64,000 nt of DNA from a plasmid: the sequence record CP121101.1. One strand, written 5' to 3'. The stretch's first letter is position 1, and every line of letters begins with the position of its first letter. Positions 6,881-56,559 of this stretch are shown here, piece after piece. The notes under the pieces were generated by a model, which had not been told where the DNA came from, did not search any database, and was given only the letters and a program-made list of their open reading frames with translations. The translations under genes were made by a program, and so were the position numbers.

Positions 6881-6913
6881 CAGTTCGATACCTCAAGAAT
6901 GTTAGAGAAAAAC

Positions 6914-9623: not shown

Positions 9624-9699
9624 AGCTCCAAGACTACCTCTTAAGTTAAGAGGGGCGAAGTGTCTGGATCTTCAAGGGGCCAATCTAACCAACACGGTC

Positions 9700-9802: not shown

Positions 9803-9905
9803 GTGATTCGTTTATGATGCAAAGCGTTGACAAGGGTAAGGGCGAAAATGAGCACAACAATCACCAATCCTTGGCACCTAGACAGCATCTCTTAGCGAGG
9901 ACCTT

Positions 9906-10250
9906 ATGTTACCAAGCAGAAAAGGCGCATCGAAACTCGAGCCCTATACAGATGAACTCCTGGAGCTGAGGGGTAAACATTCGCTTGAGGTGATCCGTGA
10001 GTACCTAGAGGAGAAGTACAACATTGAGATAACAAGGTCCGCAATAAATGCGTTCGTAAAACGAAGACAGAAAATATTGGCAAGCCATAGTTCGACCCAA
10101 CCAACTCCTCTCGTCCCCAGCGAGGAACCCAAAATGGCGCCAGCCGCCGTGCAGCGTAGTCATGTGGCCGAACGACTTCCTTCTGCCACATCCAATAAGG
10201 TGGAAACGCCTGTAGTTGTTGACGTGTGGGCAGGCAAGGTAAAACTCTGA
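9906..10250 (+). CDS. hypothetical protein, possible StbA-like DNA-binding partition adaptor
   Basis: 114-aa ORF immediately downstream of the direct repeats and upstream of an ATPase gene. Confidence 0.4.
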   Translation: MLPSRKGASKLEPYTDELLELRGKHSLEVIREYLEEKYNIEITRSAINAFVKRRQKILASHSSTQPTPLVPSEEPKMAPAAVQRSHVAERLPSATSNKVETPVVVDVWAGKVKL

Positions 10251-10268
10251 ATATTAGGGAATTAATAG

Positions 10269-11024
10269 ATGAAGATTGTTGTTGTATCTAAAACAGGATT
10301 TGTAGGAAAAACCGTTCTGTCTGCCCACTGGTTGAAAACCATGATGCCCGCAGCCCAGCTCTTCTCGATTGAGGACATGAACCAGGCCGCTGATGCACTT
10401 GGTGTTGACGTAACCACAATGAACGGGGGTCAATTCTCAAATCTGATGAATTCAATCATGGTAGAAGATGAGGCCATCATCGATGTGGGTATGAGCAACG
10501 TCCGGTTCTTCATCGACGGACTTCGCAAGTTCAGTAACTCTTGCCAAGAGTTCGACTACTACTTTATCCCCCTCACACCAGAGAAGCGTTGCCAGGCAGA
10601 GGCGGCAGAAACCATCAACACGCTGTTGGAAATTGGCGTTGACCCTGCTCGGATTCGCCCGATTTTCAACAAAATTCCAGCCACATTCTTCTCCTTCGAC
10701 CAGTTTGCAAGCTTCGTGTCATACATGAAAAAGCATACAAAAGTGGAGACCGACTTCCGGTGGGCAGTAGAAGAAAACCCGGCGTTTGAAATGCTGTCGC
10801 GGCAGGAGCTGAGCCTTGCTAGCGTGGTAGCTGATACTCGAGACTACAAAAGTGAGGCAAAGGCTATCGTTATGAAATCTCGTACAGAAGGGTTGGAGCT
10901 CGATGCCAGGAAGGTAGAAGAACTGACGTCCATGCACACTCTACGCATGTGCTGTGTTCCGCTCCTTGAGAAGCTCACTACAGTCTGGGGGGATTTACGT
11001 CTTACTACTAAGCAGGTCGCCTAA
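10269..11024 (+). CDS. ParA/StbB-like protein with a degenerate Walker A (SKTGFVGKT)
   Basis: 251-aa ORF. The deviant P-loop starts at residue 7. The gene order resembles stbABC. Confidence 0.45.
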   Translation: MKIVVVSKTGFVGKTVLSAHWLKTMMPAAQLFSIEDMNQAADALGVDVTTMNGGQFSNLMNSIMVEDEAIIDVGMSNVRFFIDGLRKFSNSCQEFDYYFIPLTPEKRCQAEAAETINTLLEIGVDPARIRPIFNKIPATFFSFDQFASFVSYMKKHTKVETDFRWAVEENPAFEMLSRQELSLASVVADTRDYKSEAKAIVMKSRTEGLELDARKVEELTSMHTLRMCCVPLLEKLTTVWGDLRLTTKQVA

Positions 11025-11461
11025 TGGCCCCGGAAAACCTATCGTTGAAGGGGGGCTTGTTACCGGCAGAACATTACCAGGCGATCTTTGCATCCATGCT
11101 TGGTGATGTGTACGAAGCCATTCAGGCAGCCAGCCGCCTACAACGAGAGGTGGAGCGTACCCACGAACTGTTTAGCAAGATTGAGTCGCTTTTAAAATGG
11201 CTATCCCGTGAGCGGCAAGAGATACATGATGCAGCAACACGCTTTGGTGTCATGCTAGAGCGGCTTGATGAAGAAAACGAGCGATTTATTCGTGTGCATC
11301 GTTCAACTCTCGATGCGATGAGGAGTGAGTTAGACTTCATAGCCCGCTCCGAAATGAAGGAGAGGGGAAGCAAGCTGAATGTTGTTACAAATGTTCCCTG
11401 GTTGGTAGCCATTATCTGTTCAGGCATTACAGGTTACTTACTTGGTATGATGGCGAAATGA
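11024..11461 (+). CDS. hypothetical protein with a C-terminal transmembrane anchor (StbC-like position)
   Basis: 145-aa ORF; its start overlaps the upstream stop. Hydrophobic C-terminus VPWLVAIICSGITGYLLGMM. Confidence 0.4.
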   Translation: MAPENLSLKGGLLPAEHYQAIFASMLGDVYEAIQAASRLQREVERTHELFSKIESLLKWLSRERQEIHDAATRFGVMLERLDEENERFIRVHRSTLDAMRSELDFIARSEMKERGSKLNVVTNVPWLVAIICSGITGYLLGMMAK

Positions 11462-11462
11462 A

Positions 11463-11497
11463 TTGAAGGCCGTACAGCGATTGTGCGGCCTTTTTTT
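11463..11497 (+). terminator. rho-independent terminator
   Basis: ggccgtacagcgattgtgcggcc stem followed by TTTTTTT. Confidence 0.6.
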
Positions 11498-11559
11498 GCT
11501 TATTCACTTCAGGTCGACTCGGCGATGCACCGTTCGAGAGATCGCTAGGTAGGCACATC

Positions 11560-13053
11560 AGCAAGCTGCAGCTAGATTCTGTATGGGCAGGGGGCCAACT
11601 AAGGCGAAGGCCGGGGGGGGGGCATCGGCTCTCGCCGGCCCGAGGCCCCGCCAGTACCGGCCGGGTGGAGTTATCCAAGGTACTGGCCTAGCATGCCTGG
11701 AGCCGGCGCCAGATCCTGCAGGGGCGGGGCCAACCAAGGTGCCGGCCGAAGAAACACCGGCTCCCGCACACCTGCAGGCCTGACCGTGGCAGCCCTAAGG
11801 CTGAGTTCTACGGCCTTAAAGCGTCAGAACAAACGCCCTCATAATCTCCTCCTTCCTCACATCCATGACTTGGCAAGCAAACAAATGCCTGCCGCCATCT
11901 CGAGCCTAACCGCATGACGCGAACCGGATATCCAGCCCGGGACGCACCGAGCATCCCAAACCGGTCCTCTGAACACCGAACCGAAACCGATAATGGGGCG
12001 GGCTACCTGGGACGTTGAGCTCGGGCCTTGCCAGCCCCAGCACACCTGACGGCCCCGCCGACTGCCATGAACCGGAACACTCGTCCAGCAGGGTACCGAG
12101 CCTGCGACGGCCCTGGCTCGACTTAACCAGCCCCGGCCCAGGGCCCGCCATGCACCGGCTCCCCCTGAACACCGAACCGACCGGCAGCCCGGGGCCACCT
12201 GCTGTACCGGCCCGCCGGACAGAGTACCGGATCCACCCCGCCGGCGGTGGCCAACTCGGGCTCCGAGACCGCGGCGGCCCGGGGCCACCGGCAGCACCAC
12301 CACACCGAATACAACTCCGGATCGGTCCACACTGGCCAAAGAGTCCGCGGCGGCACGATCCGTCAACCACACTCCACAAAGGCCAGCGCGAGCGCTACCA
12401 AAGCCCAGGATCTTGAGATCGGCATGCACACCGAGTAAATCCCGCCGCCACCTGGTCCAGCACACTTGCCGGCACCGCCGGACGTAGCACCCGATCCCCC
12501 GCCGGCGGTGGCCGCCCTCTGCCCGATCCCACGGTGACCCGGGCCATCCTGCTGCACCGCCCCGCCAGACGTTGTACCTCAGTGGCCCCCCATGCGCCGA
12601 GCACGCAGCAGCCCGAGACGTACCAGGTATTGCGCATCGGCTTACTCGACCCAGGGCACCAATGGGGATAGCGGTACCCGCTCGGCGGCCAGCATCTGCA
12701 GAATCAGCCCTGATCATTTAGTCCGGGCCCCTTAGACTCAGCACACCAGTGTGTGGAGCTCGAATACCGCCGGAGCCTTGGCTTGCTACTCTGCATGCAC
12801 ACCGACAAAAACCAGCCACCACAACTCCCGGCCCCACCGGCAACAGCACCGATCCGGGAGCTGCAGCGCCACCGGCAAGCACCGGAACACCCGCAGGCAG
12901 TGGCCACCCTCTAACCGAACCCGCCGGCCGCTACAACCGATCACCCCGCCGCTGCTGGGCACCCTGGATGCCGAACTCGCTGCCGCCCGGGGCCACCTGC
13001 AACACAGACCCATCGGAGGCCGCGCCGAATCCCCGCCCGGTCGCCGGCTACCC
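11560..13053. repeat. GC-rich (about 68 %) degenerate tandem-repeat array, unit about 150-330 bp, non-coding
   Basis: Recurring modules (cacactggccaaagagtccgc...gatcggcatgcacaccgagtaaatc...; ctgaacaccgaaccgaccgg...caccgaatacaactccgg). The same modules recur at 44147..44500. ORFs here are Arg/Gly/Pro-rich on both strands and are compositional artefacts. Confidence 0.6.
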
Positions 13054-13159
13054 GGGGTCGTTTGCGGGAGAGGGCGAAATCCTACGCTAAGGCTTTGGCC
13101 AACGATATTCTCCGGTAAGATTGATGTGTTCCCAGGGGATAGGAGAAGTCGCTTGATAT

Positions 13160-41139: not shown

Positions 41140-44113
41140 ATGCCGCGTCGCTTGATCCTCTCGGCCACGGAGCGGGACACACCCTGCTTGCGCTGCCGGA
41201 AAGCCAGGATGACCTGATCCGCTACTACACCTTCAACGACTCCGACCTGTCGCTGATCCGCCAGCGACGCGGCGACGCCAACCGCCTCGGCTTCGCCGTG
41301 CAGCTCTGCCTGCTGCGCTACCCCGGTTACGCGCTGGGAACCGACAGCGAGCTGCCCGAGCCGGTCATCCTGTGGGTGGCGAAGCAAGTCCAGGCCGAGC
41401 CGGCGAGCTGGGCAAAGTACGGCGAGCGCGACGTGACCCGTCGCGAGCATGCCCAGGAACTGCGCACCTACCTGCAACTGGCCCCGTTCGGCCTGTCCGA
41501 CTTCCGCGCCCTGGTGCGCGAGCTAACCGAGCTGGCCCAGCAGACCGACAAAGGCTTGCTGCTGGCCGGTCAGGCCCTGGAGAGCCTACGGCAGAAACGA
41601 CGCATCCTGCCGGCGCTGAGCGTGATTGACCGGGCCTGCTCGGAAGCCATTGCGCGAGCCAATCGGCGGGTCTACCGCGCCCTGGTCGAACCACTCACGG
41701 ACTCGCATCGGGCCAAGCTGGACGAGCTGTTGAAGCTCAAGGCCGGCAGCAGCATCACCTGGTTGACCTGGCTGCGCCAGGCACCGCTGAAACCCAACTC
41801 TCGGCACATGCTGGAACACATCGAGCGGCTGAAGACATTTCAGTTGGTGGACTTGCCCGAAGGCCTGGGCCGGCACATCCACCAGAACCGCCTGCTCAAG
41901 CTGGCCCGCGAGGGTGGGCAGATGACGCCCAAAGACCTCGGTAAGTTCGAGCCGCAGCGCCGCTACGCGACCCTGGCCGCCGTGGTGCTGGAGAGCACCG
42001 CGACCGTGATCGATGAGCTGGTCGATCTGCATGACCGCATCCTGGTCAAGCTGTTCAGCGGCGCGAAGCACAAGCATCAGCAGCAGTTCCAGAAGCAGGG
42101 CAAGGCGATCAACGACAAGGTGCGCCTGTACTCCAGGATCGGCCAGGCGCTGCTGGAAGCGAAGGAAAGCGGCAGCGACCCCTATGCCGCCATCGAGGCG
42201 GTGATTCCCTGGGACGAGTTCACCGAGAGCGTCAGCGAGGCCGAGCTGCTGGCCCGGCCGGAAGGCTTCGACCACCTGCACCTGGTCGGCGAGAACTTCG
42301 CCACCCTGCGCCGTTACACGCCGGCCTTGCTGGAGGTGCTGGAACTGCGCGCCGCGCCGGCCGCGCAAGGCGTGCTGGCAGCCGTGCAGACCCTGCGTGA
42401 GATGAACGCCGACAACCTGCGCAAGGTGCCGGCCGATGCACCCACGGCCTTCATCAAGCCGCGCTGGAAGCCGCTGGTGATCACCCCGGAAGGCCTCGAC
42501 CGGAAATTCTACGAAATCTGCGCCCTGTCCGAGCTGAAGAACGCCCTGCGCTCCGGCGACATCTGGGTCAAGGGCTCGCGGCAGTTCCGCGACTTCGACG
42601 ACTACCTGCTGCCGGCCGAGAAGTTCGCCGCACTCAAGCGCGAGCAGGCCCTGCCCCTGGCGATCAACCCGAACAGCGACCAGTACCTGGAAGAGCGTTT
42701 GCAGCTGCTGGACGAGCAGTTGGCCACCGTCACCCGCCTGGCCAAGGACAACGAGCTGCCCGATGCCATCCTCACCGAGTCAGGGCTGAAAATCACCCCG
42801 CTGGATGCGGCGGTGCCGGATCGGGCGCAGGCGCTGATCGACCAAACCACCAGTTACTGCCGCGCATCAAGATCACCGAACTGCTGATGGACGTGGACGA
42901 CTGGACGGGCTTCAGCCGCCACTTCACCCACTTGAAGGACGGGGCCGAGGCCAAAGACAGGACGTTGCTGCTGTCCGCAATCCTCGGTGATGCGATCAAC
43001 CTCGGGCTGACCAAGATGGCCGAGTCGAGCCCCGGCCTGACCTACGCCAAGCTGTCCTGGCTGCAAGCCTGGCACATCCGCGACGAAACCTATTCGGCGG
43101 CCTTGGCCGAGCTGGTCAACCACCAGTATCGCCACGCCTTTGCCGCCCACTGGGGCGACGGCACGACCTCATCCTCCGATGGCCAGCGCTTCCGCGCGGG
43201 TGGCCGGGGCGAGAGCACCGGGCACGTCAACCCGAAGTACGGTAGCGAGCCGGGACGGCTGTTCTATACCCATATCTCCGACCAGTACGCGCCGTTCAGC
43301 ACCCGCGTGGTGAATGTCGGCGTCCGCGATTCCACCTATGTGCTCGACGGCCTGCTGTACCACGAGTCCGACCTGCGGATCGAGGAGCACTACACCGACA
43401 CGGCCGGCTTCACCGATCACGTCTTTGCCCTGATGCACCTGCTAGGCTTCCGCTTCGCGCCGCGCATCCGCGACCTCGGCGAAACCAAGCTGTACGTGCC
43501 GCAGGGCGTGCAAGCCTACCCGACGTTGCGCCCGCTGATCGGCGGCACCCTGAACATCAAGCACGTGCGTGCCCACTGGGACGACATCCTGCGCCTGGCC
43601 AGCTCGATCAAGCAGGGCACCGTCACCGCCTCGCTGATGCTGCGCAAGCTCGGCAGCTACCCGCGCCAGAACGGACTGGCCGTGGCCCTGCGCGAGCTGG
43701 GCCGGATCGAGCGCACGCTGTTCATCCTGGACTGGCTGCAAAGTGTTGAACTGCGCCGCCGCGTGCATGCCGGCCTGAACAAAGGTGAGGCGCGCAACTC
43801 GCTGGCCAGGGCGGTGTTCTTCAACCGCCTTGGGGAAATCAGGGATCGGAGCTTCGAGCAGCAGCAGCAGCGCTACCGGGCCAGCGGCCTCAACCTGGTG
43901 ACGGCGGCTATCGTGCTGTGGAACACGGTGTACCTGGAACGCGCCACCCAGGGGTTGGTCGAGGCCGGCAAGCCGGTGGACGGCGAGCTGCTGCAATTCC
44001 TGTCGCCGCTGGGCTGGGAGCACATCAACCTAACCGGCGATTACGTCTGGCGGCAGAGCCGCAGACTGGAAGACGGGAAGTTTCGGCCCTTACGGATGCC
44101 CGGAAAACCTTAG
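41140..44113 (+). pseudogene. tnpA: Tn1721/Tn21-subgroup transposase TnpA, two frameshifts (about 41210 and about 42885)
   Basis: [13 protein letters not shown]... start. ORFs 41298..42887 and 42887..44113. Ends ...[12 protein letters not shown], as in Tn21-group TnpA, with the stop inside the IR. Confidence 0.85.
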
Positions 44114-44146
44114 CGTACGATTTTTTCCGAATTCTGCGGGCTCCCC
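44109..44146 (-). repeat. Tn1721-type 38-bp terminal IR (right end)
   Basis: Reverse complement reads GGGGAGCCCGCAGAATTCGGAAAAAATCGTACGCTAAG. Confidence 0.8.
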
Positions 44147-44650
44147 CACACTGGCCAAAGAGTCCGCAGCGGCACGAGCCGTCAGCCCCCTCCACGCAGG
44201 CCAGCGCGAACGCTACCAGAGGCCAGGATCTCGAGATCGGCATGCACACCGAGTAAATCACGCCGCCACCAGGTCCAGCACACCTGCCGGCACCACCAGA
44301 CGCTGTGCCGGGTCCCCTGAACACCGATCCGACCGGCTGCCTAGGGCCACCTGCTGTACAGACCCGCCGGCCGCCGCACCGGAACCTGCCCAGCCTGACC
44401 ACCATGGGTGCCGAGCCAGCGACGCCCCGGGGCCACCGGCAGCCCCCCACCGAATGTAACTCCGATTCGGGAGACAGACCCCCACCACGGGAGCACCGGT
44501 AATCGAGCCACGCCTTGTCGGCGAAAACGGTCTTGGTGTGGTGCGTGGCCTGCTTTGCTTCGTGATAGCGCCCCTCAGATCGACCCCATCTCGTAGCTAG
44601 CCGGAGGGGTGGAGAGTGTCGCGGATCTCGATGTTGGCCCACTCAGTGAC
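44147..44650. repeat. GC-rich degenerate repeat modules homologous to 12160..12500
   Basis: About 80 % identity over about 150 bp starting cacactggccaaagagtccgc..., followed by a ctgaacaccga...caccgaatgtaactccg module. Confidence 0.55.
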
Positions 44651-45758
44651 TCGGACGCAGGTCGAGTGAGTTAGCCAGAGCTGCATTGCATCACGGTCGA
44701 ATTAACGACCGGTGATCGAGGCGACACGAATCACATGCTTGAGTTGTCCAGGACGAAGGGCGGCAGCACGACGGGCGTCGGGTCTTGGGGAGTAGTACAT
44801 GGGACTCTCTCTATTTAATGCCGGTTCACAGCAGTGAACTGAGTGAGCAGGAAAAGGGTCTCCTGGTGATCATACCAGCAGGCCACAGGCGGGGTTCACG
44901 GATAGTTAGGCGAGTGTGTCAGGGCTGGGCACATCAGGAAGGTACACACACGGCGGTGTCGTGACGGCATGCTCTTTCGTGTAATGAGGTCGAGGCTCGG
45001 GCGCTAAGTAGATATGAAGCCCACCTTCGGGCTTCCACATTGGAGAACAGAGCATGAACAAGACTCGTATCAAACAAGGCGCCCGCTGGGCATTCACTGT
45101 CGCCCAGCAGGCGATCACCTAGGCCGCCGTCAGGCTGCTTGGCATGGCCATCCTGTCAGTGGTCGTCAAGACCTGGCCAGTGGTCGCTGTGGCGACTGGG
45201 GGGCTATGTTGAGCCCACGAATAGAAGCGGGGCCACAGGCCCCGCCGATTAGCACGGACTTTTAGAGTGAGACTTTGCTTTCATCTCACAAGGGCAGTCC
45301 AGGAGTCCGCCGAGCACCACACAAAATCACCGGCTCTAGCACAGGACCGTCAGATCCAATCCTCCACGGGGCCGACTGCGGCCCCCACTGCCAACTACTA
45401 GCCCCCGCCTGCGCTGGCCGCCTTGGGCAATGAATTTTCACGGATTCTCAATCTGGATAGTCTGCAAGTAGCCAAATGCCGATAGCCATGCAGCCGAACG
45501 TGGACCCTGTGATTGAATACCGAGCCTGCTGGCCACCGAGTAGTCCAGATCACAACTAAAGGAGGGGGAGGGGGTCGCAGTCGAGTAACTCGAAGTGAAA
45601 AGGCAGGATCCGGCTCATCTATCGATGGTGCTTCACTGACGTGGTTAATGCGGTAGATGCTACTCATGCAGTTCATTATCTCTACGACGTCTTCGAAATC
45701 ACAACATACATCAACAAAAAGCCCCGCTAGGCGGGGCTATTTGCATCTTGCGCCTGGT

Positions 45759-46427
45759 CTATGCGCAGATCTTAACTGGGCGCGGCAACGGCTTACAGGC
45801 GATGATCGCGAGCTGCCATTCGTGGTGCTGGGGGCTACCCCATATCTTATCTGACAATGAAGCCAACTCAGCATCAGAACGGATCTGGTGCAGTTCGCCG
45901 GTCATCAGTTGATAGTGGTACACGTACAGCCGACGATAAAGCGCCTCGGACATTCTGGCCTTCCAGAAGTGCATACCTTCCCCAGTCTGCATGTTATCAC
46001 TCAGGATCACATCATAACGGGCCAGTATATAGCCGAAGAATACCGCAGACGGCAGATCTCGAAGTACAGCCTTGTGGTGCTGATTGAACGAACGCCAAAC
46101 CCGTTGCTGGGTGGCCGGGCGACATTTCAGATCTTCATAGTGAACGATGATCACCTGGTTGTAATAGGCGACCTCAGCCGTATGGTCATTGACCAAGGCG
46201 ATCTCGAATTTGTCGCCACCGAGTCGAGTAGTCACACAGACGAGGCGGTAGCCGGGCGGTAGAGCGATTCCCAACTCCGGCGCAATCTCCTGGATGTGCT
46301 CATGCCCCACCAGAGCTTGATACATCGCCCCGTTGGTTGCGGTCACTTCCAGGTCACGGAATGTTTCTGTGACCTTGTTTGCATCGATAATGAGTTGCGG
46401 CATAGCGTCTCGTAGTTGATTGCTCAT
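45759..46427 (-). CDS. hypothetical protein (222 aa)
   Basis: ORF flanked by hairpin terminators at 45722-45745 and 46474-46494. Confidence 0.45.
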   Translation of the reverse strand: MSNQLRDAMPQLIIDANKVTETFRDLEVTATNGAMYQALVGHEHIQEIAPELGIALPPGYRLVCVTTRLGGDKFEIALVNDHTAEVAYYNQVIIVHYEDLKCRPATQQRVWRSFNQHHKAVLRDLPSAVFFGYILARYDVILSDNMQTGEGMHFWKARMSEALYRRLYVYHYQLMTGELHQIRSDAELASLSDKIWGSPQHHEWQLAIIACKPLPRPVKICA

Positions 46428-46534
46428 ATTTGATTCATGCCTACTCTAACACTCTGGGGCGGGTGACTTCCATAATAATAGACAAAGCCCCGCAACGCGG
46501 GGCAGGACAACCAAAACGAACTGTGTCAGGCAAA

Positions 46535-46927
46535 TCACCGACTGATTTTATCCCGAGGCCTCATGCATTTGAGCCAAAGGCAATAGCAAGCGACTAGGGA
46601 ACCCAGGCAGTAGAGAATGAACGGCAGCACCATCCGATATGAGAAGGGGCTAGGAACCATGCTCGTCGGCGGAATTGACATTATCTTGAAGCTCTTGAAT
46701 TTCGTAGATTTTCCGTCTGCATCAGTCAGATTATAAGTCCCTTCCCAATCAATAGAGAGGTCACCTGCAAGAGTTCTATCATTCGGAAGCACGACTTCCA
46801 CATTGTGGCGAACAAAGCCAACCGATTGCCATTTCATCCCTAAGTGGATGACCCCTATCGCCATCCATAGCCAACACCCACCGGCCAACAAAATCACTGG
46901 CACATACCGAACTTGACTCAATTGCAT
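46535..46927 (-). CDS. hypothetical membrane protein (two predicted TM helices)
   Basis: 130-aa ORF with hydrophobic segments VPVILLAGGCWLWMAIGVIHL and VLPFILYCLGSLVACYCLWL. Confidence 0.4.
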   Translation of the reverse strand: MQLSQVRYVPVILLAGGCWLWMAIGVIHLGMKWQSVGFVRHNVEVVLPNDRTLAGDLSIDWEGTYNLTDADGKSTKFKSFKIMSIPPTSMVPSPFSYRMVLPFILYCLGSLVACYCLWLKCMRPRDKISR

Positions 46928-46998
46928 CTCTCCTAGAACACTAGAAATGTAACGTGGTAGCGATTGACTAGCAAACCACTGAAAATGTTTTTTTGGCT

Positions 46999-48972
46999 CT
47001 AAAGCTTCATTACCTTTTTCCTACGGCTTCCCGCCGCCGCCCGGTTCCAGTCATCCCGCTTATTGCTCTCAATTGATTCCCTTCCTGCTTCCCACGTTCC
47101 GCTGAAAAAATTGGCATCATCTGTTCTACCAACAGCGATTAAGGGGGTTACCAATCGTGAGAAATACACCCTCTTGTGAATCTGAGCCGCAACTTCAAGC
47201 GGCGATCGAGAAGAAGAGAGCATTTTTTTCAATCTGGCGATAGTGTCTGCGTTATCCCTATACCAGAAAGTGACACGAAGATGAGCCGGTTTAAGCGGTA
47301 TAGAGCGGAGAATCGTTTCAAATTCTGACTGTTTGCTTTTGCGTGGGTCATGGCTCGCGATTTGACGCAGCAGTGCGGCATCGGCATCACGCGCCACGAT
47401 TCAAACACCTTAGCTAGGCTGGTCAATTTGCGATCATCGCCCCCCTTGAGCAGGAGGCGAGCGCCGGCCGGTGACTTCTTGGCAGCCTTACGCAATCCTG
47501 ACATTATCCGCTCAACAGCATCCAGGTTGGCTGATAGCCACTCTTTAGGCTTGGTTCTGGCGGATGGACTCGTACTTGATGCCGTAAAACTGAGCCCTTG
47601 CAGTTCCTCCGCCACCTCAGTGCTATACGCCTTACCGCGACCCCGCTTTCTGGGCACATCGATTACTGGAAGTGTAAGGTCCGAATTTGCTACAGACCGA
47701 GCATCCCCGATTGAATGCGATTTAAAGTGAATTTCCGTTGAAAGTGTGAGTCGTTCATCACTTTCCTTTGACTTCACATTTCGATATTTAATATCGACAT
47801 CGATCAGTCCCGCACTCAGAAGTTCGTTAAGGGCCAATGAGAGTTGCCGGCGATCATTGTGGTTGTGCCGACCAGTCTCGCGTGGATGGATTTCACGCAG
47901 GAGCTCAAGAACCGTCATGGGCCGCAGATTCAGAAACACCCTGCGCCCCATTAGCTTGCCTGGCCTAGCTGCGATCCATAGAGCTAGCAGGCGAGCCATC
48001 TGAGAGTTCAACTGAATGACTGCACTTCGATTTATTGGGACGAGCTTTTTAGTGCTCAGATACAAGGTTCGCAGCTCTGGGGTCGGAGATATTTCGATGG
48101 TCCCATCAGGTTCCAACCTCAGAGTACCAACGATATTCGCAATCATGACCGATCTCTTTCGGCTAGTCTCATCCGCATCATCGAGCGTTGGGTAAAATAG
48201 AAGAGCAACGCTCTTTAGCCTTGCAAGCGAATCGACGATTTTTTTGTCCAACAGGTAATCTGACGGCCGCATATCCTCAGGAATCGGTGAGAAAAATCGC
48301 TCTATGGTCATACGAATTGGCTTGATGATGGCTTGCTCAAACCTCTCCTTTGACAGGCGCCCTAACCAATGAGTGATGCAGATATAAGAGACAAAATCCA
48401 TTTTGAGTGTTGAGGGTTGGCCCCCTCAGTGACATATAAGCGTGACCACTGCTAAGCGGAGTGGTCAGGTGGTAAATTCTATGCTCATCCAGTGCTGGTG
48501 GCGTCTTCCCGCTCGCAAGCACGCGGAACATCCCCGTTTTCAGGGTCATATCCAGGTGCAAATCAATGTTCTCAGGGGGAGGGCTGCGATCTGGGTACAA
48601 GGAGCGGGTTTGAACCCTATCGTACTCAACCAAGTAGTCCGTATCTTGTTCTATCACCACGGGAGCTCTTGTGTTAGCCACAGCAGTAGGTTCTGGGTGA
48701 TCCTTTTCTTCAGCTCCCCCTACATTGTGTTCATTGGCTTCATCCACCAGCAACGTCATTTTTTCCATTGCCGGCCAAATGATCTCTAGGGCTCGCTCTA
48801 CTGACAGCTCCGGTGCCGTCGACACAAAATTCAGCAGCATTGACACAGCCGACTTGTTAATTTTCGGTAAAAGTGGGGGCGCCATCACTTTGATGACGTC
48901 AGCACGAAATCCCTGTTTGGTTAAATACGCCTCTAAAATCGCATTCGCGCAGCTAATTTTATCAACGATCAT
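46999..48972 (-). pseudogene. rep: putative iteron-type plasmid replication initiator (Rep), apparently split by frameshifts into ORFs 48337..48972, 47229..48401 and 46999..47397
   Basis: Position immediately downstream of 7 iterons and an AT-rich GATC cluster. Overlapping consecutive ORFs on the same strand. No named family recognised. Confidence 0.45.
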
Positions 48973-49068
48973 GCGTCACCCCCCAACCTGTGCATATGCT
49001 GAATATAACCTGTTCAAAAGCTGTTTATAACCTGTTATCACCTGACAAAATAGTCTCGATAGAGACTC

Positions 49069-49222
49069 CGCGGCATAGTAGATAAGAGACCACGGCATAG
49101 TAGATAGCATATCACGGCATATAACATAGAGCATCACGGCATAGCATATAGAGCATCACGGCATAGTACATAGAGGAACGCGGCATATAACATAGCAGTG
49201 CACGGCATATTACATAAAACAG
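49069..49222. repeat. seven 22-bp iterons (C[A/G]CGGCATA + 13 nt) with exact 22-bp phasing; candidate oriV
   Basis: Copies start at 49069, 49091, 49113, 49135, 49157, 49179 and 49201. Confidence 0.8.
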
Positions 49223-49254
49223 AAAAAAGCCATATACATCACTAAGTTACAACC

Positions 49255-49345
49255 ACCCCATCTTTAAAGATCTTTAACAGATCAAAGATATTAAAAGATC
49301 AGTAGATCAAGAGATCAAAAAAAAGAGATCAATGATCTATAATAA
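49255..49345. promoter_or_regulatory. AT-rich region with 7 GATC (Dam) sites in about 90 bp, origin-unwinding-element-like. More GGATCC/AGATCT sites follow at 49370-49620.
   Basis: Direct reading: agatct, cagatca, agatcag, tagatca, gagatca, gagatca, tgatcta. Confidence 0.6.
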
Positions 49346-49850
49346 GTTGCAGTCGATCTCTTCTCGTTAGGATCCATTTTCGGATTCACAATCCGTTCGC
49401 AGCCCCTGAGCAAGCCTGATTTGAGCCCTAGACAGCTCTCAGATGGAAAGTAGACCCCGTGGCAATACGTTGGTATACCCCGGTGATGAGCGCCCTATAA
49501 ACCGCAATTCCAGCGATTTTATGACTGGGTGAATAACCGCTTAAAAACCGTCCCATCCTATCGGATCCAGACCATAGATCTACTGGATCCAACGTGGATC
49601 CATTTTTTAACAGGACCTCGTTTACCTCACACCATCAATAACCTACAGCTAATCGTTCAGTTCAAGCTTTTCGCTGTAGATCCAAGACACGTTGACCCCA
49701 TACTCTGAACTAGATCCTTAGCAGGGTATGCAAGGATCGATGATCTGAAGATAAAGCGACACAAACAGACGTCCTGAGTTTAAAACACGGTCTCATTCAG
49801 CATCTTCAAGATCCGATTGGGGTAACATATGCCTTTCGATTCGGAGGTAT

Positions 49851-51735
49851 TTGATGAGGACCTTAGCAAGGAAAGGCGATCCCACCAGCACTGGCGGTGC
49901 GATCCAAGACGGGGACAGCAGCTGGCTCAGCGAAGGCTCCCCAACCACCTATATCGGGATGATAGCGACCTGCCCAGCTTGCAAAGTCGGACAGGGCCCT
50001 ATCGTCGCCGTGGGCCCCCGCTCCATCATCGGCCCGGGCGGGCCGGTAGCACTGCAGGGCGATTATGTCGCTTGCGGCTGCCCGCCTATGAGCAACACCA
50101 TACTCCCCGCCCAGGGGACGACAGTCGGCGACAACAAAGGGCCTCGAGCGAAAGCAGCCAGCGCCCCAGCAGAACCACCAGCGCCAGCACCGGCCAGTTC
50201 GCCGGCGACCCCTCTTGTCCCGTTGGTTGACCCCGAGGAACACCGGATCGGCATCTTCTTCGATGGCACCCAGAACAACAGGCACAACAGCGAGCTCAGG
50301 GAGCAATGTGAAGAGGCAAGCGAGGCGGCCTGCAAATCCATAGAGAAGCTGATAGGCACTGAATCCTCATACGACGGCGGCCCAACCAACATGCCCCCGG
50401 CTGCATCAAGCCTATACCGGCCCAGCAATCTACATCGAGGGGATCGGCACTGCTGCCGGCAAGGCTGACACAAAGATCGACATGGCTTTCGGTACCGGTG
50501 CAACTGGCGTCATAGCCAGGTCAAAGGAAGGCCTGGCCAAGATCAGCACCATGATCGCCAGCCTACCCGCCGGCCCGGTAGCTGTGGATGTCTTCGGCTT
50601 TAGCCGGGGCGCTGCAGCTGCGCGACATTTCGTGAACATCCTTCTGGAATCGAACCTGGGGCGCCAGGTGCACGTCGCATTCGTTGGCCTCTTCGATACC
50701 GTAGCAGCCATAGGCCTGGACGCCAGCAATGACGAGAATGCGCCAGTTCGCCTCTACATTGCTCCCGGGGCCGCGGAGAAGGTTGTCCAGCTCGCCGCCA
50801 AGGACGAGTACCGGCTCAATTTTGCGCTTAACTCCGTACAGCCAGACCACACGGAACTCCCGCTATTCGGTACTCATAGCGACGTTGGCGGCGGGTATCT
50901 AGACCAAGTTGAGAAGACGCCAATCATGCGCCCCTATGATGCCATCCTGAAATTTGGTGATGACGCAGCCTATAAGAGATTCCAGGCTGCAGCCAACGCC
51001 AGGCTCCAGGAGGAAGCTATCCCTCTATACAAGGGATATGCGAAAGACAGCAGCCAAATAAAGCCGACCATCAGCTCTTTCTCCGTCGTATCCAAGAGCG
51101 ACGCGCCAATGGTGGGCTATGTGGCCAACGCGATCATGACGCGCACGGTCAAACCTGAACTGCAGCTGCTCGCCGGCCACCTTATGCAGACTATCGCGCA
51201 GGAAAGCGGAGCGCCGCTCACCCCCCTGTCTGAGCCGGTTCCCGGGGCGCTGGCCTTCTTGTTCGACAAGTACCTGGGCCTGTGGCATGGAAGCGGTGAC
51301 CTCAAACTGTCCAAGGAGCAAAACGAGATGCTGATGACGGAGTATGTTCACTGCTCCGATAACTGGACGCCGCTCGGCCCCCTCTACGTGAACGCCCCGC
51401 CCCTAGTAGGGTTCGTCGCGTCTACCAGCAAACACCAGGGAAGTGACCTTATGAAGCGAATAGTCAGTGTCCTAGCCCTCCCCCTCGCACTTGCAGCTTG
51501 TGGCGATACCCAGGAGAAGAAACAGCCCCGTAAGCCGCCAGAGGAGCGGGTGATCAGTGAGCCAGCTCATGGATTTGGCGTCCTTTTTGGCAAGCCAAAC
51601 CCCGATTACACACCGCCAGGGAGGCTAGTTGATAGCCCGGACTTTAAAGTGACTCTCCCAGAGGACCGCTGGGAAGAGGTCACTATCAGCAAAAAAGAGG
51701 GCAAGCCAAGCGCGGCGGCAGGTGTAGATAAGTGA
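49851..51735 (+). pseudogene. PAAR-domain / DUF2235 (Tle1-family phospholipase) fusion, a T6SS-type effector, with a +1 frameshift near 50400
   Basis: The N-terminus is PAAR-like (ARKGDPTSTGGAIQDG, CPACKVGQGPIVAVGP). The DUF2235 hallmarks are IGIFFDGTQNN and DVFGFSRGAAAARHF (GxSxG). ORFs 49851..50468 and 50482..51735. Confidence 0.65.
51451..51735 (+). CDS. putative lipoprotein (94 aa; MKRIVSVLALPLALAAC lipobox) encoded in-frame at the 3' end of the effector ORF; candidate immunity protein
   Basis: Canonical signal peptide with an L-A-A-C lipobox beginning at an internal ATG at 51451. There is no stop codon between it and the DUF2235 domain in this sequence. Confidence 0.35.
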   Translation: MKRIVSVLALPLALAACGDTQEKKQPRKPPEERVISEPAHGFGVLFGKPNPDYTPPGRLVDSPDFKVTLPEDRWEEVTISKKEGKPSAAAGVDK

Positions 51736-51974
51736 GAGCTCGCTGGGCTGTCACTCTCCTGGCGACAGTAGGGGTCTTGGCCATAGCCACCCTGTTTTAC
51801 ACTAGGTCAGATCTACCGAAGGCGGAAAGGCCAGGTATCACCTCCTCCAGTCATGGAGTGGGTGTCCTGTTAGGTTCGCCACAGTACCAGGTGAAAGGTG
51901 AGCTGGTGGAGGGGGGCTTTCTGGATAAGCAGCTGGACGAGAAGGGCAGTACGGAATTGGACGAATACCAGTGA
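51732..51974 (+). CDS. small membrane-anchored hypothetical protein (80 aa)
   Basis: ORF with an N-terminal TM helix (WAVTLLATVGVLAIATLFY). Its start overlaps the upstream stop. Confidence 0.35.
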   Translation: MRARWAVTLLATVGVLAIATLFYTRSDLPKAERPGITSSSHGVGVLLGSPQYQVKGELVEGGFLDKQLDEKGSTELDEYQ

Positions 51975-52003
51975 CACTAGGCCGGCCAGCTGCAATGATG
52001 AAC

Positions 52004-52023
52004 CAATCAATCAATCAATCAAC
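52004..52023. repeat. (CAAT)4-CAAC tetranucleotide repeat 12 nt upstream of the start codon of ORF 52035
   Basis: ccaatcaatcaatcaatcaac followed by an acGGAGGgcaagtgATG RBS and start. Confidence 0.85.
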
Positions 52024-52034
52024 ACGGAGGGCAA

Positions 52035-52409
52035 GTGATGTCCTTTACTGCGATCACCCTTGAGGCCGCCCTGGCCATTGAGCCGGCCAAGCTATCTGGC
52101 GTCATAGACGGGGTACCGGTCAACCCGGCCAAGCCACCAGCCAGAGACATCAAGCACGACGAGCGTGAGCCCGAAGAAATGATTCTGTGGTGGCGCCAAC
52201 CGTACCTGCAATGGAATAGCAATGGGCACTGGGATGTTAGATGCCTCGATGGCGGCGCATGGGATCGCCCCACGTTCATAGGTAACCATGAAGAGCTGGC
52301 CGGTGCCATAGAGCTGGCCAAGAAGCCTACCCGCGCCTATGCCATAGGGGAGCGGCAGGCCCTGGAGAGCGGCGAAGCCCTAATGAGATCGCTGGGGCTT
52401 GATGAATGA
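52035..52409 (+). CDS. hypothetical protein (124 aa)
   Basis: ORF with a GGAGG RBS. Confidence 0.4.
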   Translation: MMSFTAITLEAALAIEPAKLSGVIDGVPVNPAKPPARDIKHDEREPEEMILWWRQPYLQWNSNGHWDVRCLDGGAWDRPTFIGNHEELAGAIELAKKPTRAYAIGERQALESGEALMRSLGLDE

Positions 52410-53090
52410 GCCAAGGGCGCCACATAGGCGCCCTTGTTCTGAGATGAAAACAAGCAGTAAGCTTAACTTTGGTAGGGCACTATAAGCTCAGAGCCCTGAC
52501 AATCGCCCGTTTCGCATCTGTCCTAGTAAGGGCCTTAATAGTATGTGTGGCCCTGCTCAGTCTTGGGGCTAGAGTGACGTGACAAAATGGAATGACGCCG
52601 GCTAGATCACTGGTCACCACATGGGATCCCGGAGTCCAGTAAAACTCGTCGCCCCTACACACCCAACAATGCCTCCCATCAAGCTCGCCGGTGTACTCTA
52701 AATCGGATTGCCTCATAGTTACTCCAAACTCGCCTTTGGTTCCTGGTGGTTACCACTCCAGGATCAGAATATGGCCATGGATTCTCCATATGGCCGTGCT
52801 TGACGCCTGAGTTACCAATTAGCTCTGATTTTCATCATCCAACCCTTCAGCGGTATACCCAACCATGGAGTTTTGGTACCGAACCGCAGCTGTATGGATG
52901 GATACGGATTGAAGAGAATAGCCCCGCCGCAGCAACGACTGCAGACAGCCATGGGTCAGACCCCGTGTTAGCTAGACCAAGTACCAGAAGCATGATGCCA
53001 ATGCCGATCATGTGGCTGGCAGTTACAATGCCATGGGTTCGCAGTCTAGCAATCATTCTGTTCATTTGTGGCGTTCATTCCTCGTCGCAA

Positions 53091-53648
53091 TCAAGCGTTG
53101 AAGTGGTTCAGAAGCTGAAGGCGATCCATTAATCTCTGGGCATTTTTATCCTTGCTCCGAGAGGAATCATCCCGTGTTCGGTCGTTCTTATCAAAAAGCG
53201 CTCTCAAGCTAGCTATGCCTCTCAGGGAGGCTTCATATCGAGACCGGCTCATGATTTCCCTTACTTCTCGAATAACAACCTTACACTCGTGCTCATCCAG
53301 CCAGCCTATGCCCCGGCGAGTATATGGCAGGCTCAGAAGGTGCTGCATCCATGCATAGGCTTCGTGCTTATTCATTCTGCCGGAATCGATCAGGGTGTTG
53401 ATGCTGGTATGTGCCTCGCGCCTCGCCAATCGGGTTTCCCTGTTGGCAACAGAACCGATCGCGATGTCAGTTCCTTCTCGGCAGCTAACGTAGCTATCGC
53501 AGGCATCACGGTTGCAACGGTAGATCATCGCTTTAGCCGGCGCGGCAGGATACACCACCTGTTTTCTGACGAGCTCCAGAGGAGCGCCACAATAGCGGCA
53601 GTCCTTTGGATGAAAATGACTATTTGCTGTGTTGCGAGCCATATGCAC
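53091..53648 (-). CDS. hypothetical zinc-ribbon protein (CxxC...CxxxxCxxxxxC)
   Basis: 185-aa ORF; CRYCGAPL...CNRDACDSYVSC. Confidence 0.4.
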   Translation of the reverse strand: MHMARNTANSHFHPKDCRYCGAPLELVRKQVVYPAAPAKAMIYRCNRDACDSYVSCREGTDIAIGSVANRETRLARREAHTSINTLIDSGRMNKHEAYAWMQHLLSLPYTRRGIGWLDEHECKVVIREVREIMSRSRYEASLRGIASLRALFDKNDRTRDDSSRSKDKNAQRLMDRLQLLNHFNA

Positions 53649-54417
53649 AATCCTGATGAGAGGGTTGTAGCCATTGTCTCGTGGTACTCAGGAATGCAAG
53701 TTTGAGTTGCAGCCATGCCGGCTGTGAAAACCCTGCTAGGCCCGGGTAAGGGGTTCTACACCCGGGTGTGTAGTTGGGAGTGCAAAACGATCTCGGGTTT
53801 AGCCCAAAAATAACCTTGCTGCAGATTGAAGCCGAGCATTTGAGATGAGACAGCTTGGTTGTAGGTTTCGATGCGTTCAGCGATGATGGGGATCCCCCCT
53901 TCCTCATACAAGTATCAATCCCTTCCAGCATGCAGGAGGTGTAGCCGTTCGTCTGGCCACACTCAAACTTCACTATGTCCCATTCAAAATCATGCAGCCG
54001 TGTAAGCGTGGAGTATTTCGTGCCGAAATCATCCATGACAAGTTCGACACCCATCGATCTTAGGCTATCCCATCGTTTTTGGAGCGTAGAGGGGGTGACC
54101 TGCTCGGTGACTTCAACCAAGATGTTGTGCTTGCGGGCCAGCTTGAGGATCAGAGTGCGCCATTGATGGAATCGGCGCTCAACTGCCAAGGTATGCTCAC
54201 TCACATTGACCAGTAGGTTCAATTCCCCCTTAAGGAGCTGGTCCGCGAGATCGAGAACGGCCTTATCAATGTCGAACCAGGAGTGGTAATCGGAGGTTGG
54301 AGGGGAGAACCTTGATAGGCCACTATTTCTCGCAAGCAACTCATAGGCATGAATCACCTGTTTCTCTGTGTCGAACACTGGCTGCCTAGCAATGAGCATT
54401 AACTTTGGTCCCCTCAA
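53620..54417 (-). pseudogene. EAL-domain (c-di-GMP phosphodiesterase) protein, C-terminal part degenerate or frameshifted
   Basis: EAL signatures QPVFD, ELLAR and VMDDFGTKYSTL are present in the first about 170 aa. The tail lacks EAL motifs. Confidence 0.5.
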
Positions 54418-54841
54418 AAATTACCGCGAGAGAGTCTACCCCTCTGACGCCGAGTAAATCCTATGGTGAAATCGTGAGCTATTTCTGATGTGAGTTATCC
54501 ACAGAATTGCTGGATAAGTAGCCTGTGAACGTGTGGACAGTTCGCTGCAGCCATTGCTAGGACTGTGTTATTGGCAGCCCTTGGCTGCAGCGCATTTGAT
54601 TTGGGCTATCTAGCACCAGGGAAGCCGATCAGAGGCCAGGTCATGACATCAGCAAGCAGATCTTCGTATTCAGACAGTGCCGCCCGGCCGAGAGCTATCT
54701 GCAGCTTGATTAGGTTGGTAGCCAAAGCCGTGAAACCGACCGCCTCGGTACAACTGCTTTCGCCATTACGCGCCGCGGATAAAATGTCAAAGGAGTGATT
54801 AAACTCGGGCTGCCGGGCAGCGGCATGGATGGCATCGTAGA

Positions 54842-55405
54842 TCAAAGCAAGCCGCGATATGGACTCAAAGGCCAGTTCCGGGAATGTATCCGGAGCTGAG
54901 CCCCCATCGTGTGGCCAAAAAATGGTGCAATGACGGATCCTGCCTGGCAGGACAAGTCACTCGAGATTTTCTCGATGCTTTCCAGCATTGAATTCAGAAA
55001 TTCCTGAGAATACCCGGCCCCCTGATCACCCAATTGCAGCAACACGTCGTTCTTAATTTGCTCCTCAATGGACATCAGGATCAGTTGATACGAGGCATGC
55101 ACTGCTCGTACACAAGCCGTCAATGGCTGGTGAGGAATGAGCTCCTTATGCCAGGTGGCCAGGGGATGGGACTTCAGTTCCGCATTGTCTGCGTCGGAGT
55201 AGGAGTAAGTTACGAGCGAACGGCCATCGAGGTATATGATGTTGTGCACCATGACTATAAAGCCGTTCTTCGTGAGCCACAGTGAACCGGCTCTGACCCT
55301 CGAGTCACCCTGGTCTGCGGTGTTGGGTCGTGTGTCTATTGCGGTCATTTTATTCCTCTCAACATTAGTGAATTGTAAGGCTGCGATGGTGCAGTTCGCG
55401 GGCAT
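54842..55405 (-). CDS. hypothetical protein (187 aa)
   Basis: ORF only. Confidence 0.3.
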   Translation of the reverse strand: MPANCTIAALQFTNVERNKMTAIDTRPNTADQGDSRVRAGSLWLTKNGFIVMVHNIIYLDGRSLVTYSYSDADNAELKSHPLATWHKELIPHQPLTACVRAVHASYQLILMSIEEQIKNDVLLQLGDQGAGYSQEFLNSMLESIEKISSDLSCQAGSVIAPFFGHTMGAQLRIHSRNWPLSPYRGLL

Positions 55406-55670
55406 CGATCAAGTATCGGTACCGGTATAGCTCGCTGGCTTGTTGGTTCAACGGCACCAATACCCACTCCACGTCGGAATGACAGATGATGGAGAAGCAG
55501 TGATCGTTGATGATGAAAATATCACCGGGGAAGTGCCGGCATTTAGATAGGAAATCATCACGCTGAGCCAACGTCAGTGGCTTGCACTCTGCGTAGTTGA
55601 GGATTTTTTCCCGTTCGCAAACCTGCACCGGCAGGTCTATGGTGGTGGCGATTGCTTTACTGAAGTCCAT
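55365..55670 (-). CDS. hypothetical protein (101 aa)
   Basis: ORF only. Confidence 0.3.
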   Translation of the reverse strand: MDFSKAIATTIDLPVQVCEREKILNYAECKPLTLAQRDDFLSKCRHFPGDIFIINDHCFSIICHSDVEWVLVPLNQQASELYRYRYLIDARELHHRSLTIH

Positions 55671-55907
55671 AGGGTCCCCCCATTTTTATTGATAAGTTGG
55701 TGACAGGATAAATTGCTTTTTTGCAATGCAAGGGGGGCCCATCCTGGGCGGCAAGTACCTGAACAGCTTCAAAACGAGAGGGCGAGTGCACCGGAACTAT
55801 GTGGCCGGTGCCTGGGAGTTTGTGATTGATTGGAGGGAAGGGGGGGTAATCAAATTCATCCTGCCGGTGGTTCTAGATCTAGGCAGGCAGGGGATGCAAT
55901 CCTCGGG

Positions 55908-56183
55908 CTATAGGGACTTCAGTAACAGTGCGCGGAGAAAGTCCTGCTGTGAAATTGAGCAAGCTTTGAACCCGCGAAACACACCATTATCGACCAGGAT
56001 TTCGTCATACCGGCCAATGGTATCTCGATAAACAAGACGTCGCTTTCCAATACCGCCGACCAACTCATCAACCGTGCGCACAACCTGTTCGGCTGAATTC
56101 GTGATTGTGGCGCAGAGGTCTAGATCCAGAAGGAGCAGCATGGTCTCGTCCTGGTACACGATTTCAAAAACGGGTGTTGGCAA
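55908..56183 (-). CDS. hypothetical protein (91 aa)
   Basis: ORF only. Confidence 0.3.
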   Translation of the reverse strand: MPTPVFEIVYQDETMLLLLDLDLCATITNSAEQVVRTVDELVGGIGKRRLVYRDTIGRYDEILVDNGVFRGFKACSISQQDFLRALLLKSL

Positions 56184-56559
56184 TTGTCTGCTCCCTATAC
56201 CTCTGTTGAGCCAACCCAGGTATCACCAAGGTAAGCATCCGCACCCCGGAGGCGCTCCAGAGGGATATCTAGGGAAGGTGCGAATAAGTGGTTAGCACCT
56301 TCGTCTTTGATAGTTAGGTCGATTTTTGACTCGTCCCATTTCTAACATTGCCCTATTTTCTTCAAAAATCAGGATTTATAACCATTTTCACCTCTTATCT
56401 GTGGGTATTCCTCGATTTTAGGTAGATCTTTTCTGTGCTCTTATCAATTGGTCTACTCGAAACAGGTTCGCTAGCGTAAACAACATCGCCAGTTGAATGT
56501 CGTTCTTCATCAGCCCCTTGTACCGCGCTTTGACGAAGCTGAGTCGCCCCCAGTTCCCT

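Follow-up and report, generated by a model that had tools for sequence, protein, structure and literature searches.

Positions 49851 to 51974 of a 64,000-nucleotide stretch of plasmid DNA (sequence record CP121101.1; the window, hereafter, is this whole stretch) encode a PAAR spike-tip domain, a Tle1-type DUF2235 lipase domain and two small proteins, in reading frames that do not join up. The locus raises the question of whether a type VI secretion system (T6SS) effector has decayed here, has fused with the lipoprotein gene that follows it, or is intact in the real plasmid and was broken during assembly. We conclude that the locus is very probably an orphan T6SS effector-immunity module, intact and made up of three genes, on a large MOBH resistance plasmid of Aeromonas, and that the frameshift and the fusion seen in the window are assembly errors. 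On the narrower point of an unbroken effector gene in the actual plasmid, we are slightly more confident again.

Two frameshifts and an apparent fusion

The effector region of the window is 99.6% identical to that of pAER-f909 of Aeromonas sp. ASNIH4 (NZ_CP026221.1), which has an intact 530-aa effector, a TGA, 4 nt, and a separate 94-aa lipoprotein gene in the +1 frame. Inside the genes, the window differs from pAER-f909 at three places (50390–50400, 51395–51399, and a single-nucleotide polymorphism (SNP) at 51467); inside the effector gene, nothing differs except the insertion and the deletion (indels) at the first two. We also compared the window base by base with four independent assemblies (L096–L099, which are GCA_052315895.1, metagenome ERZ929151, SRR5298264 and GCA_051662245.1). 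Over positions 49600–52100 (2,501 nt), these differ from the window by one intergenic SNP and exactly the two frameshift sites, with two SNPs rather than one in SRR5298264 (L098). In all four, an intact 530-aa effector gene ends in a stop codon, and a separate lipoprotein gene starts after a spacer of 4 nt; intact, otherwise identical copies of the module are already in public databases. The features of the locus, including the open reading frames (ORFs) listed mechanically by program, are:

49854..51446, + strand: PAAR-Tle1 effector gene, 530 aa once the two frameshifts are corrected, matching the intact genes of L096–L099
50390..50400, + strand: frameshift site 1, CATGCCCCCGG in the window versus CATTGCCCGG in close relatives; net +1 at 50393–50395; phase 393–395 modulo 500
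51395..51399, + strand: frameshift site 2, C4 in the window versus C5 in relatives; −1; phase 395–399 modulo 500
51444..51446, + strand: true effector stop codon TGA, frame 0, then 4 nt and the lipoprotein ATG
51451..51735, + strand: type A immunity candidate, a lipoprotein of 94 aa, start MKRIVSVLALPLALAAC, with an HGFGVLFGKP core
51732..51974, + strand: type B immunity candidate, 80 aa, with an N-terminal transmembrane segment or signal peptide and an HGVGVLLGSP core
49851..50468, + strand: mechanical ORF 1 of the program-made list, frame 0, 205 aa
50482..51735, + strand: mechanical ORF 2, frame +1, 417 aa; the frame is open from 50356
51732..51974, + strand: mechanical ORF 3, 80 aa
49844..49848, + strand: Shine-Dalgarno-like GGAGG, 5 nt before ATG 49854, found by inspection of the sequence

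The effector in the window has two frameshifts, not one. A preliminary description of the locus had noticed a single +1 frameshift near 50400, which is present at 50393–50395, and had missed the second, a −1 change at 51395–51399. Reading the effector through the window requires frame 0 to ~50393, frame +1 to ~51395, and frame 0 again to the TGA. In translation, frame 0 closes soon past ...SSYDGGPTNM and frame +1 continues with ...RLHQAYTGPAIYIEGIGT..., with the break at ~50393–50398. The deletion at site 2 creates the apparent in-frame fusion of effector and lipoprotein: past this site, the mechanical ORF keeps to frame +1, the last 16 effector codons are misread as PLVGFVASTSKHQGSDL, and the lipoprotein ATG follows. 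It is correct for the window sequence as given that a lipoprotein signal begins in frame at 51451 with no stop codon between, as described previously. By contrast, the proposal that an effector-immunity boundary has been lost, or that the fusion is genuine, needs two indels that are absent from L096–L099 and from pAER-f909.

Gene order and spacing in the relatives were observed directly, and agree with this account. A spacing of 4 nt between the effector stop codon and the lipoprotein ATG is found in L001, L002, L003, L006 and L007 as well as in L096–L099. In the 12 Aeromonas loci that we read, the type A gene lies directly 3' of the effector, which is truncated by the contig end in two of them (L100 and L101), and the arrangement of effector, lipoprotein and paralogue was kept in all loci examined. 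In a second survey (24 contigs read), the 530-aa PAAR and Tle1 gene ended 4 nt before the lipoprotein in the six places shown, four complete and two cut by a contig end (L100 and L101 again). The C-terminal tail of the effector, ...VNAPAPSR(V/I)RR(V/I)YQQ..GK*, is kept in all five of the Aeromonas relatives that were translated and in a copy of 61% identity from an Enterobacter plasmid, and L096–L099 are alike in this respect. For all eight relatives with a junction that we read, this tail leads into a stop codon and 4 nt of spacer, after which the lipoprotein begins as its own gene. Where relatives are intact, the lipoprotein frame extends only 60 nt 5' of its ATG (81 nt in pAsa5). Among ~15 billion proteins, the 204-aa and 417-aa ORF products each occur on a single contig, 211,418 bp long, and the exact type A protein of the window on about 50 contigs. 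The effector likely starts at ATG 49854, after the GGAGG, rather than at TTG 49851; the RefSeq start of the pAER-f909 orthologue is at the ATG equivalent to 49854.

Indels at 500-bp spacing across the window

We compared the window with pAER-f909 for the plasmid backbone, and with the unrelated pKPS30 and pIMP69 for the resistance island. Indels and garbled patches relative to these references are not scattered, but recur at ~500-bp spacing in window coordinates. This lattice includes positions 1995–2005, 2504, 3500, 5496, 6496, 6993, 7999 and 11008 in the first part of the window; 19359, 19851, 20358, 34345, 34841, 35351, 35848, 37344, 39341, 39841, 42850 and 43857 in the middle; and 44396, 45405, 47398, 48404, 50395, 51399, 52900, 53898 and 54904 at 44.4–55.4 kb. 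Per segment, 9/12, 8/10 and 9/10 events fell in one 15-bp phase class, which 0/20,000 simulations reached; we used a scan statistic for the phases in place of a Rayleigh test, which the few off-lattice events diluted. The resistance island shows the same 500-bp lattice against pKPS30 and pIMP69, with a phase of ~345–360. Across the breakpoints at ~5800 and ~52583, the phase is constant in window coordinates and jumps in pAER-f909 coordinates, indicating that the errors belong to this assembly. The possibility that they belong to pAER-f909 was ruled out by this behaviour at the breakpoints, together with the lattice seen against pKPS30 and pIMP69.

Lattice indels frameshift parA, parB, the thiF gene of the PRTRC system, sul1, qacEdelta1, catB3 and the tnpA gene of TnAs1, as well as several hypothetical genes and one gene with an EAL domain. 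Breaks in parA, parB, sul1 and the others are not biologically credible in a resistance plasmid that is being maintained. A lattice of this kind would be expected from a polisher that builds its consensus in fixed 500-bp segments, with small duplications or deletions at the joints, and the two indel errors in the effector, ~1 kb apart, would have arisen at such junctions during polishing. On this comparison of sequences, both effector frameshifts are most likely assembly artefacts. With indel errors about every 500–1000 bp, any call of a pseudogene, frameshift or fusion in the window is suspect unless a relative shares the change.

Two length differences from pAER-f909 lie off the lattice. A (CAAT)n repeat at 52003–52022, 5' of the GGAGGG/GTG start of a conserved 124-aa ORF (52035–52409), is one unit longer in the window and in L096–L099 than in pAER-f909. 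It is the only off-lattice indel at 44.4–55.4 kb and, given its position outside the error lattice, probably reflects true variation in copy number. At 11621–11622, a G8 homopolymer exceeds its pAER-f909 counterpart by two bases, which could reflect either true variation or a simple error in homopolymer length.

If both indels were real, the effector would be a true pseudogene that has decayed while its immunity genes were kept as orphan immunity. We consider this improbable. The window sequence as given does hold both frameshifts, and loss of the effector with retention of immunity does occur in the family, since NZ_CP118944 and NZ_CP110646 carry only the 3' part of the effector and the lipoprotein, and in P0130 the lipoprotein ORF stands beside unrelated sequence. 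However, both indels fall exactly on the window-wide lattice that also disrupts parA, parB, sul1, catB3 and tnpA; the rest of the 2.5-kb region matches the four intact relatives except for one SNP (two in L098); and two compensating frameshifts ~1 kb apart, with no further decay, are unlike a degrading gene.

The effector and its candidate immunity proteins

To identify the domains of the effector, we ran profile searches on the protein joined by deleting one base at 50397. The joined protein matched PF05488 (PAAR) at aa 8–78, with an E value of 1.1e-12 and 48 bits against a gathering cut-off of 27, and PF09994 (T6SS_Tle1-like_cat) with E values of 6.7e-14 to 2.5e-14 and 52–54 bits against a cut-off of 27; DUF4150 gave no profile match in this protein. 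Both matches lie above their cut-offs, in agreement with the earlier description of a PAAR domain fused through a Pro/Ala linker to DUF2235. The effector is laid out as follows, with a short conserved tail after the Tle1 domain:

49872..50084, + strand: PAAR domain, the T6SS spike-tip module, aa 7–77 (PF05488)
50139..50234, + strand: Pro/Ala-rich linker, aa ~96–127, between the two Pfam domains in the translation
50244..51369, + strand: Tle1-like alpha/beta-hydrolase phospholipase domain, aa 131–505 (PF09994 and phmmer)

The best match of solved structure is Tle1 of enteroaggregative Escherichia coli (EAEC) bound to VgrG (6SJL chain D), with a phmmer E value of 1.6e-32 over aa 132–505. Because the sequence matches a solved Tle1, we take the fold as fixed. 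IGIFFDGTQNN of the effector aligns with IGIFFDGTGNN of EAEC Tle1 (6sjl_D), and Ser250 in GFSRG (codon 50602–50604), Asp281 in FDTV (50695–50697) and His341 in THSD (50875–50877) align with S197, D245 and H310 of that chain; the two motifs singled out in the preliminary description as Tle1 hallmarks, IGIFFDGTQNN and GFSRGA, are both present in this alignment. S197, D245 and H310 are reportedly the catalytic triad of EAEC Tle1 (Flaugnatti et al. 2016). The domain identities and the conservation of these residues are direct observations.

The Tle1–4 families have a GxSxG motif and a Ser-His-Asp triad (PMC9860674). With a DUF2235 profile match above cut-off, a GxSxG motif and aligned Ser, Asp and His residues, the effector is predicted to belong to the Tle1 family, and with its N-terminal PAAR domain and C-terminal toxin extension, it is predicted to be a specialised ('evolved') PAAR effector. 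The same architecture of PAAR and PF09994 recurs among the best 120 of 1,500 homologues. No vgrG, hcp or T6SS cluster is annotated in the matching regions of the window or on the whole of pAER-f909; for the latter, which is the closest complete plasmid, this holds for any Hcp, VgrG or Tss gene. The effector is an orphan in this sense, as had been proposed, and linkage to the spike is supplied instead by the fused PAAR domain; linkage to T6SS genes is typical of the Tle1 family but not strictly defining. The preliminary description would have given way to an intact effector with a separate, out-of-frame lipoprotein gene and an adjacent cognate T6SS cluster; the relatives have the first two, and no T6SS cluster is adjacent.

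The two small proteins downstream are candidate immunity proteins. The type A protein, predicted to be a lipoprotein of the outer-membrane type, has a lipobox, LAAC, at 51490–51501, with Cys17 as the lipobox cysteine and Gly at +2. The type B gene starts with a GTG that overlaps the type A stop codon by 4 nt (GTGA), and encodes the second small membrane protein noted previously, an 80-aa product whose N-terminus includes a hydrophobic segment; L097, L098, L100 and L101 have a gene call for it. Export signals were judged by inspection, together with a weak LPAM_1 match. The type A and type B proteins are paralogues (BLASTP E value of 1e-5), and share the core ..P.HG[FVL]GV[LI]FG[KS]P..Y..G..V. 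In pAER-f909-like plasmids, type A is followed by type B with overlapping stop and start codons; pAh2111-2-KPC (L002) has an A-B-A array; plasmid pA of strain RZ6S-1 (L003) has type A plus a B/A fusion; and pAsa5 and the IncA plasmids have type B only.

At 51467, within the lipoprotein signal peptide, the window has G and pAER-f909 has T, giving Ser6 and Ile6, respectively. The Ser variant is common (about 50 contigs), indicating that this difference is a real polymorphism.

Tli immunity genes encode lipoproteins or proteins with a Sec signal (PMC13133936). Directly 3' of the effector are a lipobox protein at +4 nt and then an overlapping membrane-anchored paralogue, consistent with the periplasm-facing gene expected at this position. 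A 99-aa homologue of the type A protein, 63% identical to it, ends the T6SS auxiliary cluster at 5534–11861 of pAsa4 (NC_009349.1). We infer Tli-type immunity because the coupling to the effector, the export signals, the tandem duplication and the type A copy on pAsa4 fit expectation (PMC13133936, PMC9860674). Apart from matches to the signal peptide alone, neither small protein matches Pfam or NCBIfam at E≤0.01, and neither matches the profiles of the known Tli families (DUF3304, for the P. aeruginosa Tli1, and DUF2931, for Aeromonas and Vibrio). Both are immunity candidates by context, and not members of a named Tli family.

The pAsa4 cluster, which is complete and lies on a conjugative MOBH plasmid, consists, in order, of PAAR, VgrG, a DUF4123 adaptor, a 650-aa DUF2235 Tle1, a DUF2931 immunity protein, a 58-aa ORF and the 99-aa lipoprotein. 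The gene for this last protein has the look of orphan immunity against PAAR-Tle1 effectors carried by other plasmids.

From comparison of sequences, we infer T6SS delivery, phospholipase activity, immunity function and a benefit at the level of the plasmid. The PAAR domain would form the tip on the VgrG spike of a T6SS encoded on the host chromosome, and firing would carry the Tle1 lipase into the periplasm of nearby Gram-negative cells, where it would hydrolyse membrane phospholipids. The type A and type B proteins would face the periplasm, shielding plasmid carriers from attack by sister cells.

A second alternative is that the DUF2235 hydrolase has nothing to do with a T6SS, being delivered by another contractile system or by conjugation, or acting as an anti-eukaryotic lipase, and that the small proteins are unrelated to immunity. 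The lack of annotated T6SS genes on the plasmid (pAER-f909), the lack of a family assignment for the small proteins and the lack of any publication found on the plasmid module are all consistent with this, but we regard it as very improbable. PAAR is a dedicated spike-tip domain, and its combination with PF09994 is widespread; the closest solved relative, EAEC Tle1, is a proven T6SS toxin; a type A homologue lies within a cluster of PAAR, VgrG, adaptor, Tle1 and immunity genes on pAsa4; and in A. hydrophila, proteins of the PAAR-DUF2235 type have been proven to act as T6SS effectors (PMC12396204).

Least probable of all is a genuine effector-immunity fusion, or a programmed or phase-variable frameshift at C-runs giving a fused protein. 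In its favour, ORF 50482..51735 does read on into the lipoprotein, and an independent record, the A. hydrophila YURI 17 plasmid, has an annotated fusion produced by indels within this C-rich 3' stretch. Against it, frameshift 1 severs the PAAR domain before the read-through frame is entered, such that no single frame encodes PAAR, Tle1 and lipoprotein; a fusion is ruled out by the frame-0 tail and stop codon, kept from Aeromonas to Enterobacter, and by a lipoprotein frame that is open for just those 60 nt in intact relatives; an internal lipoprotein signal peptide would not function; and programmed or phase-variable frameshifting is ruled out by the position of both sites, including the deletion, on the error lattice and by their invariance in four identical relatives.

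Several points weigh against our conclusion that the module is intact. The phase of the lattice steps from ~0 at 1–11 kb to ~345–360 at 19–44 kb and ~400 at 44–56 kb, and these steps are unexplained. The artefact call is an indirect one, drawn from sequence comparison rather than from reads. The candidate immunity proteins have no match among curated families, and the core common to both is only ~30 aa. Lastly, RefSeq annotates a 628-aa effector-lipoprotein fusion at 5012–6898 of the YURI 17 plasmid (NZ_CP121796.1), which leaves real slippage at these homopolymers possible in principle. Relative to pAER-f909 and pAh2111-2-KPC, the YURI 17 fusion results from two additional C residues, at gene positions 1521 and 1539 in two C-runs 18 nt apart; it looks like a homopolymer error, and shows that the C-rich 3' end is prone to such indel calls.

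Plasmid context, distribution and related systems

Window positions 1–13057 and 44146–56272 correspond to the pAER-f909 backbone, with 99.6–99.8% identity. This backbone includes MOBH, the PRTRC system and conjugation genes of the type found in integrative and conjugative elements. Between the two stretches is ~31 kb of resistance DNA, with a class 1 integron carrying aac(6')-Ib-cr, blaOXA-1, catB3 and arr-3, and with qacEdelta1, sul1, ISCR1, TnAs1 and a tni module; the earlier description of the plasmid as a resistance replicon holds on this evidence. Aeromonas accounts for 34/39 plasmids matching the region. The 657-aa and 222-aa genes that lie upstream on the opposite strand in pAER-f909 were considered as adaptors and rejected, having no Pfam or NCBIfam match; the 124-aa ORF downstream (52035–52409) has no Pfam match. 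The pAsa5 and IncA copies are followed by a different gene, and we observed the upstream genes solely next to Aeromonas copies of the pAER-f909 type. We do not count the flanking genes as members of the module. A promoter and terminator scan and an Rfam search gave nothing useful. An IS3-family insertion sequence occupies window positions 8352–9687 (1,336 bp, with a 131-aa orfA and a 292-aa orfB); pAER-f909 has a copy at another site (43429–44764, just downstream of the module), with 16 substitutions and 0 indels.

Using tblastn, we found a DUF2235 relative on 301 plasmids, and a full-length copy with at least 60% identity on about 80. The full-length copies occur in Aeromonas, where the virulence plasmid pAsa5 is among the carriers, and, with ~61% identity, on plasmids from Enterobacter, Klebsiella, Citrobacter, Salmonella and others; the 3/3 Enterobacterales plasmids that were typed (p35734-141kb, pRAx and pKpnLUIS) are IncA. 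The type A gene is on 25 plasmids, all from Aeromonas, and the type B gene on 77 plasmids, 61 of them conjugative. Among GTDB species representatives, close copies were found in A. salmonicida and A. rivuli only, both on small contigs; the other matches were Bacteroidota DUF2235 proteins caught by the FFDGTQNN pattern, and are uninformative. On p35734-141kb, pRAx and pKpnLUIS, the PAAR-Tle1 and type B genes are often unannotated, and adjoin a block of tyrosine recombinase, helix-turn-helix and hipA genes; plasmid pA of A. salmonicida (L003) has this block beside the gene as well.

Reports of T6SS genes on Aeromonas plasmids go back to the A449 genome paper (PMC2556355). A literature search found no paper on this plasmid module; the family of modules appears unstudied, and the small immunity candidates are uncharacterised. 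The locus is another example of T6SS effector-immunity genes on multidrug-resistance plasmids, of Aeromonas and of clinical Enterobacterales (IncA). It could bear on the persistence of resistance plasmids, with nothing mechanistically surprising. A bolder interpretation, which we consider possible but doubtful, is that the module is a plasmid-selfish weapon that commandeers the chromosomal T6SS of the host to kill plasmid-free neighbours and segregants, and that the small proteins, with their HGxGVLFG core, form a new minimal Tli family. The basis for this interpretation is distribution only, as given above for the full-length effector and for type B. If it were true, the weapon would act as a population-level addiction that stabilises resistance plasmids, both the pAsa5-like MOBH plasmids of Aeromonas and the IncA plasmids of Enterobacterales.

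We compared the module with four sets of known or related systems. EAEC Tle1/Tli1 (EC042_4534/4535; PDB 6SJL and 6SKI) belongs to the same DUF2235 alpha/beta-hydrolase family, with ~375 aa matched, and has in common with the plasmid protein FDGT.NN, the GFSRG serine, the FDTV aspartate and the HSD histidine, as well as a small outer-membrane-type lipoprotein immunity gene directly downstream (PMC9860674). By contrast, EAEC Tle1 is a cargo effector that binds VgrG (PMC9860674), at the C-terminal TTR domain of VgrG1, and is encoded inside a T6SS cluster, whereas in the plasmid protein, an orphan, the first ~38 residues are replaced by a fused PAAR domain and Pro/Ala linker. The small proteins described here were set against curated Pfam and NCBIfam families rather than against Tli1 itself.

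PAAR1 and PAAR2 of A. hydrophila AH54, with Tsi3 and Tsi4, also carry PAAR at the N-terminus, a C-terminal DUF2235 domain with GxSxG, and an immunity gene directly downstream, and experiments have demonstrated their T6SS-dependent antibacterial activity and immunity (PMC12396204). The likeness, within one genus, is one of architecture. The AH54 genes differ in being located in chromosomal clusters (Aux1 and Aux2) beside Rhs effectors, and the AH54 proteins are placed in Tle2 by the phylogeny of those authors (PMC12396204).

Tle1AH of A. hydrophila NJ-35 and the pAsa4 cluster likewise involve Aeromonas lipases of the Tle1 family with periplasmic immunity (PMC7245790; PMC2556355), and pAsa4 resembles the present plasmid in carrying a T6SS effector module, with the 63%-identical type A lipoprotein, on an Aeromonas MOBH plasmid. 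However, these lipases travel as cargo, depend on a DUF4123 adaptor and a cognate VgrG, have DUF2931 immunity, and are ~28% identical to the lipase described here. Outside Aeromonas, we compared the IncA (RA1-type) plasmids pRAx, pKpnLUIS and p35734-141kb of Enterobacterales, which are also MOBH conjugative resistance plasmids: they have the same 530–546-aa architecture with ~61% identity, type B directly 3' of the effector, and, in p35734-141kb, the one IncA effector translated, the conserved C-terminal tail. The IncA modules differ in being without the type A lipoprotein and in occupying another backbone neighbourhood, with hipA and a tyrosine recombinase.

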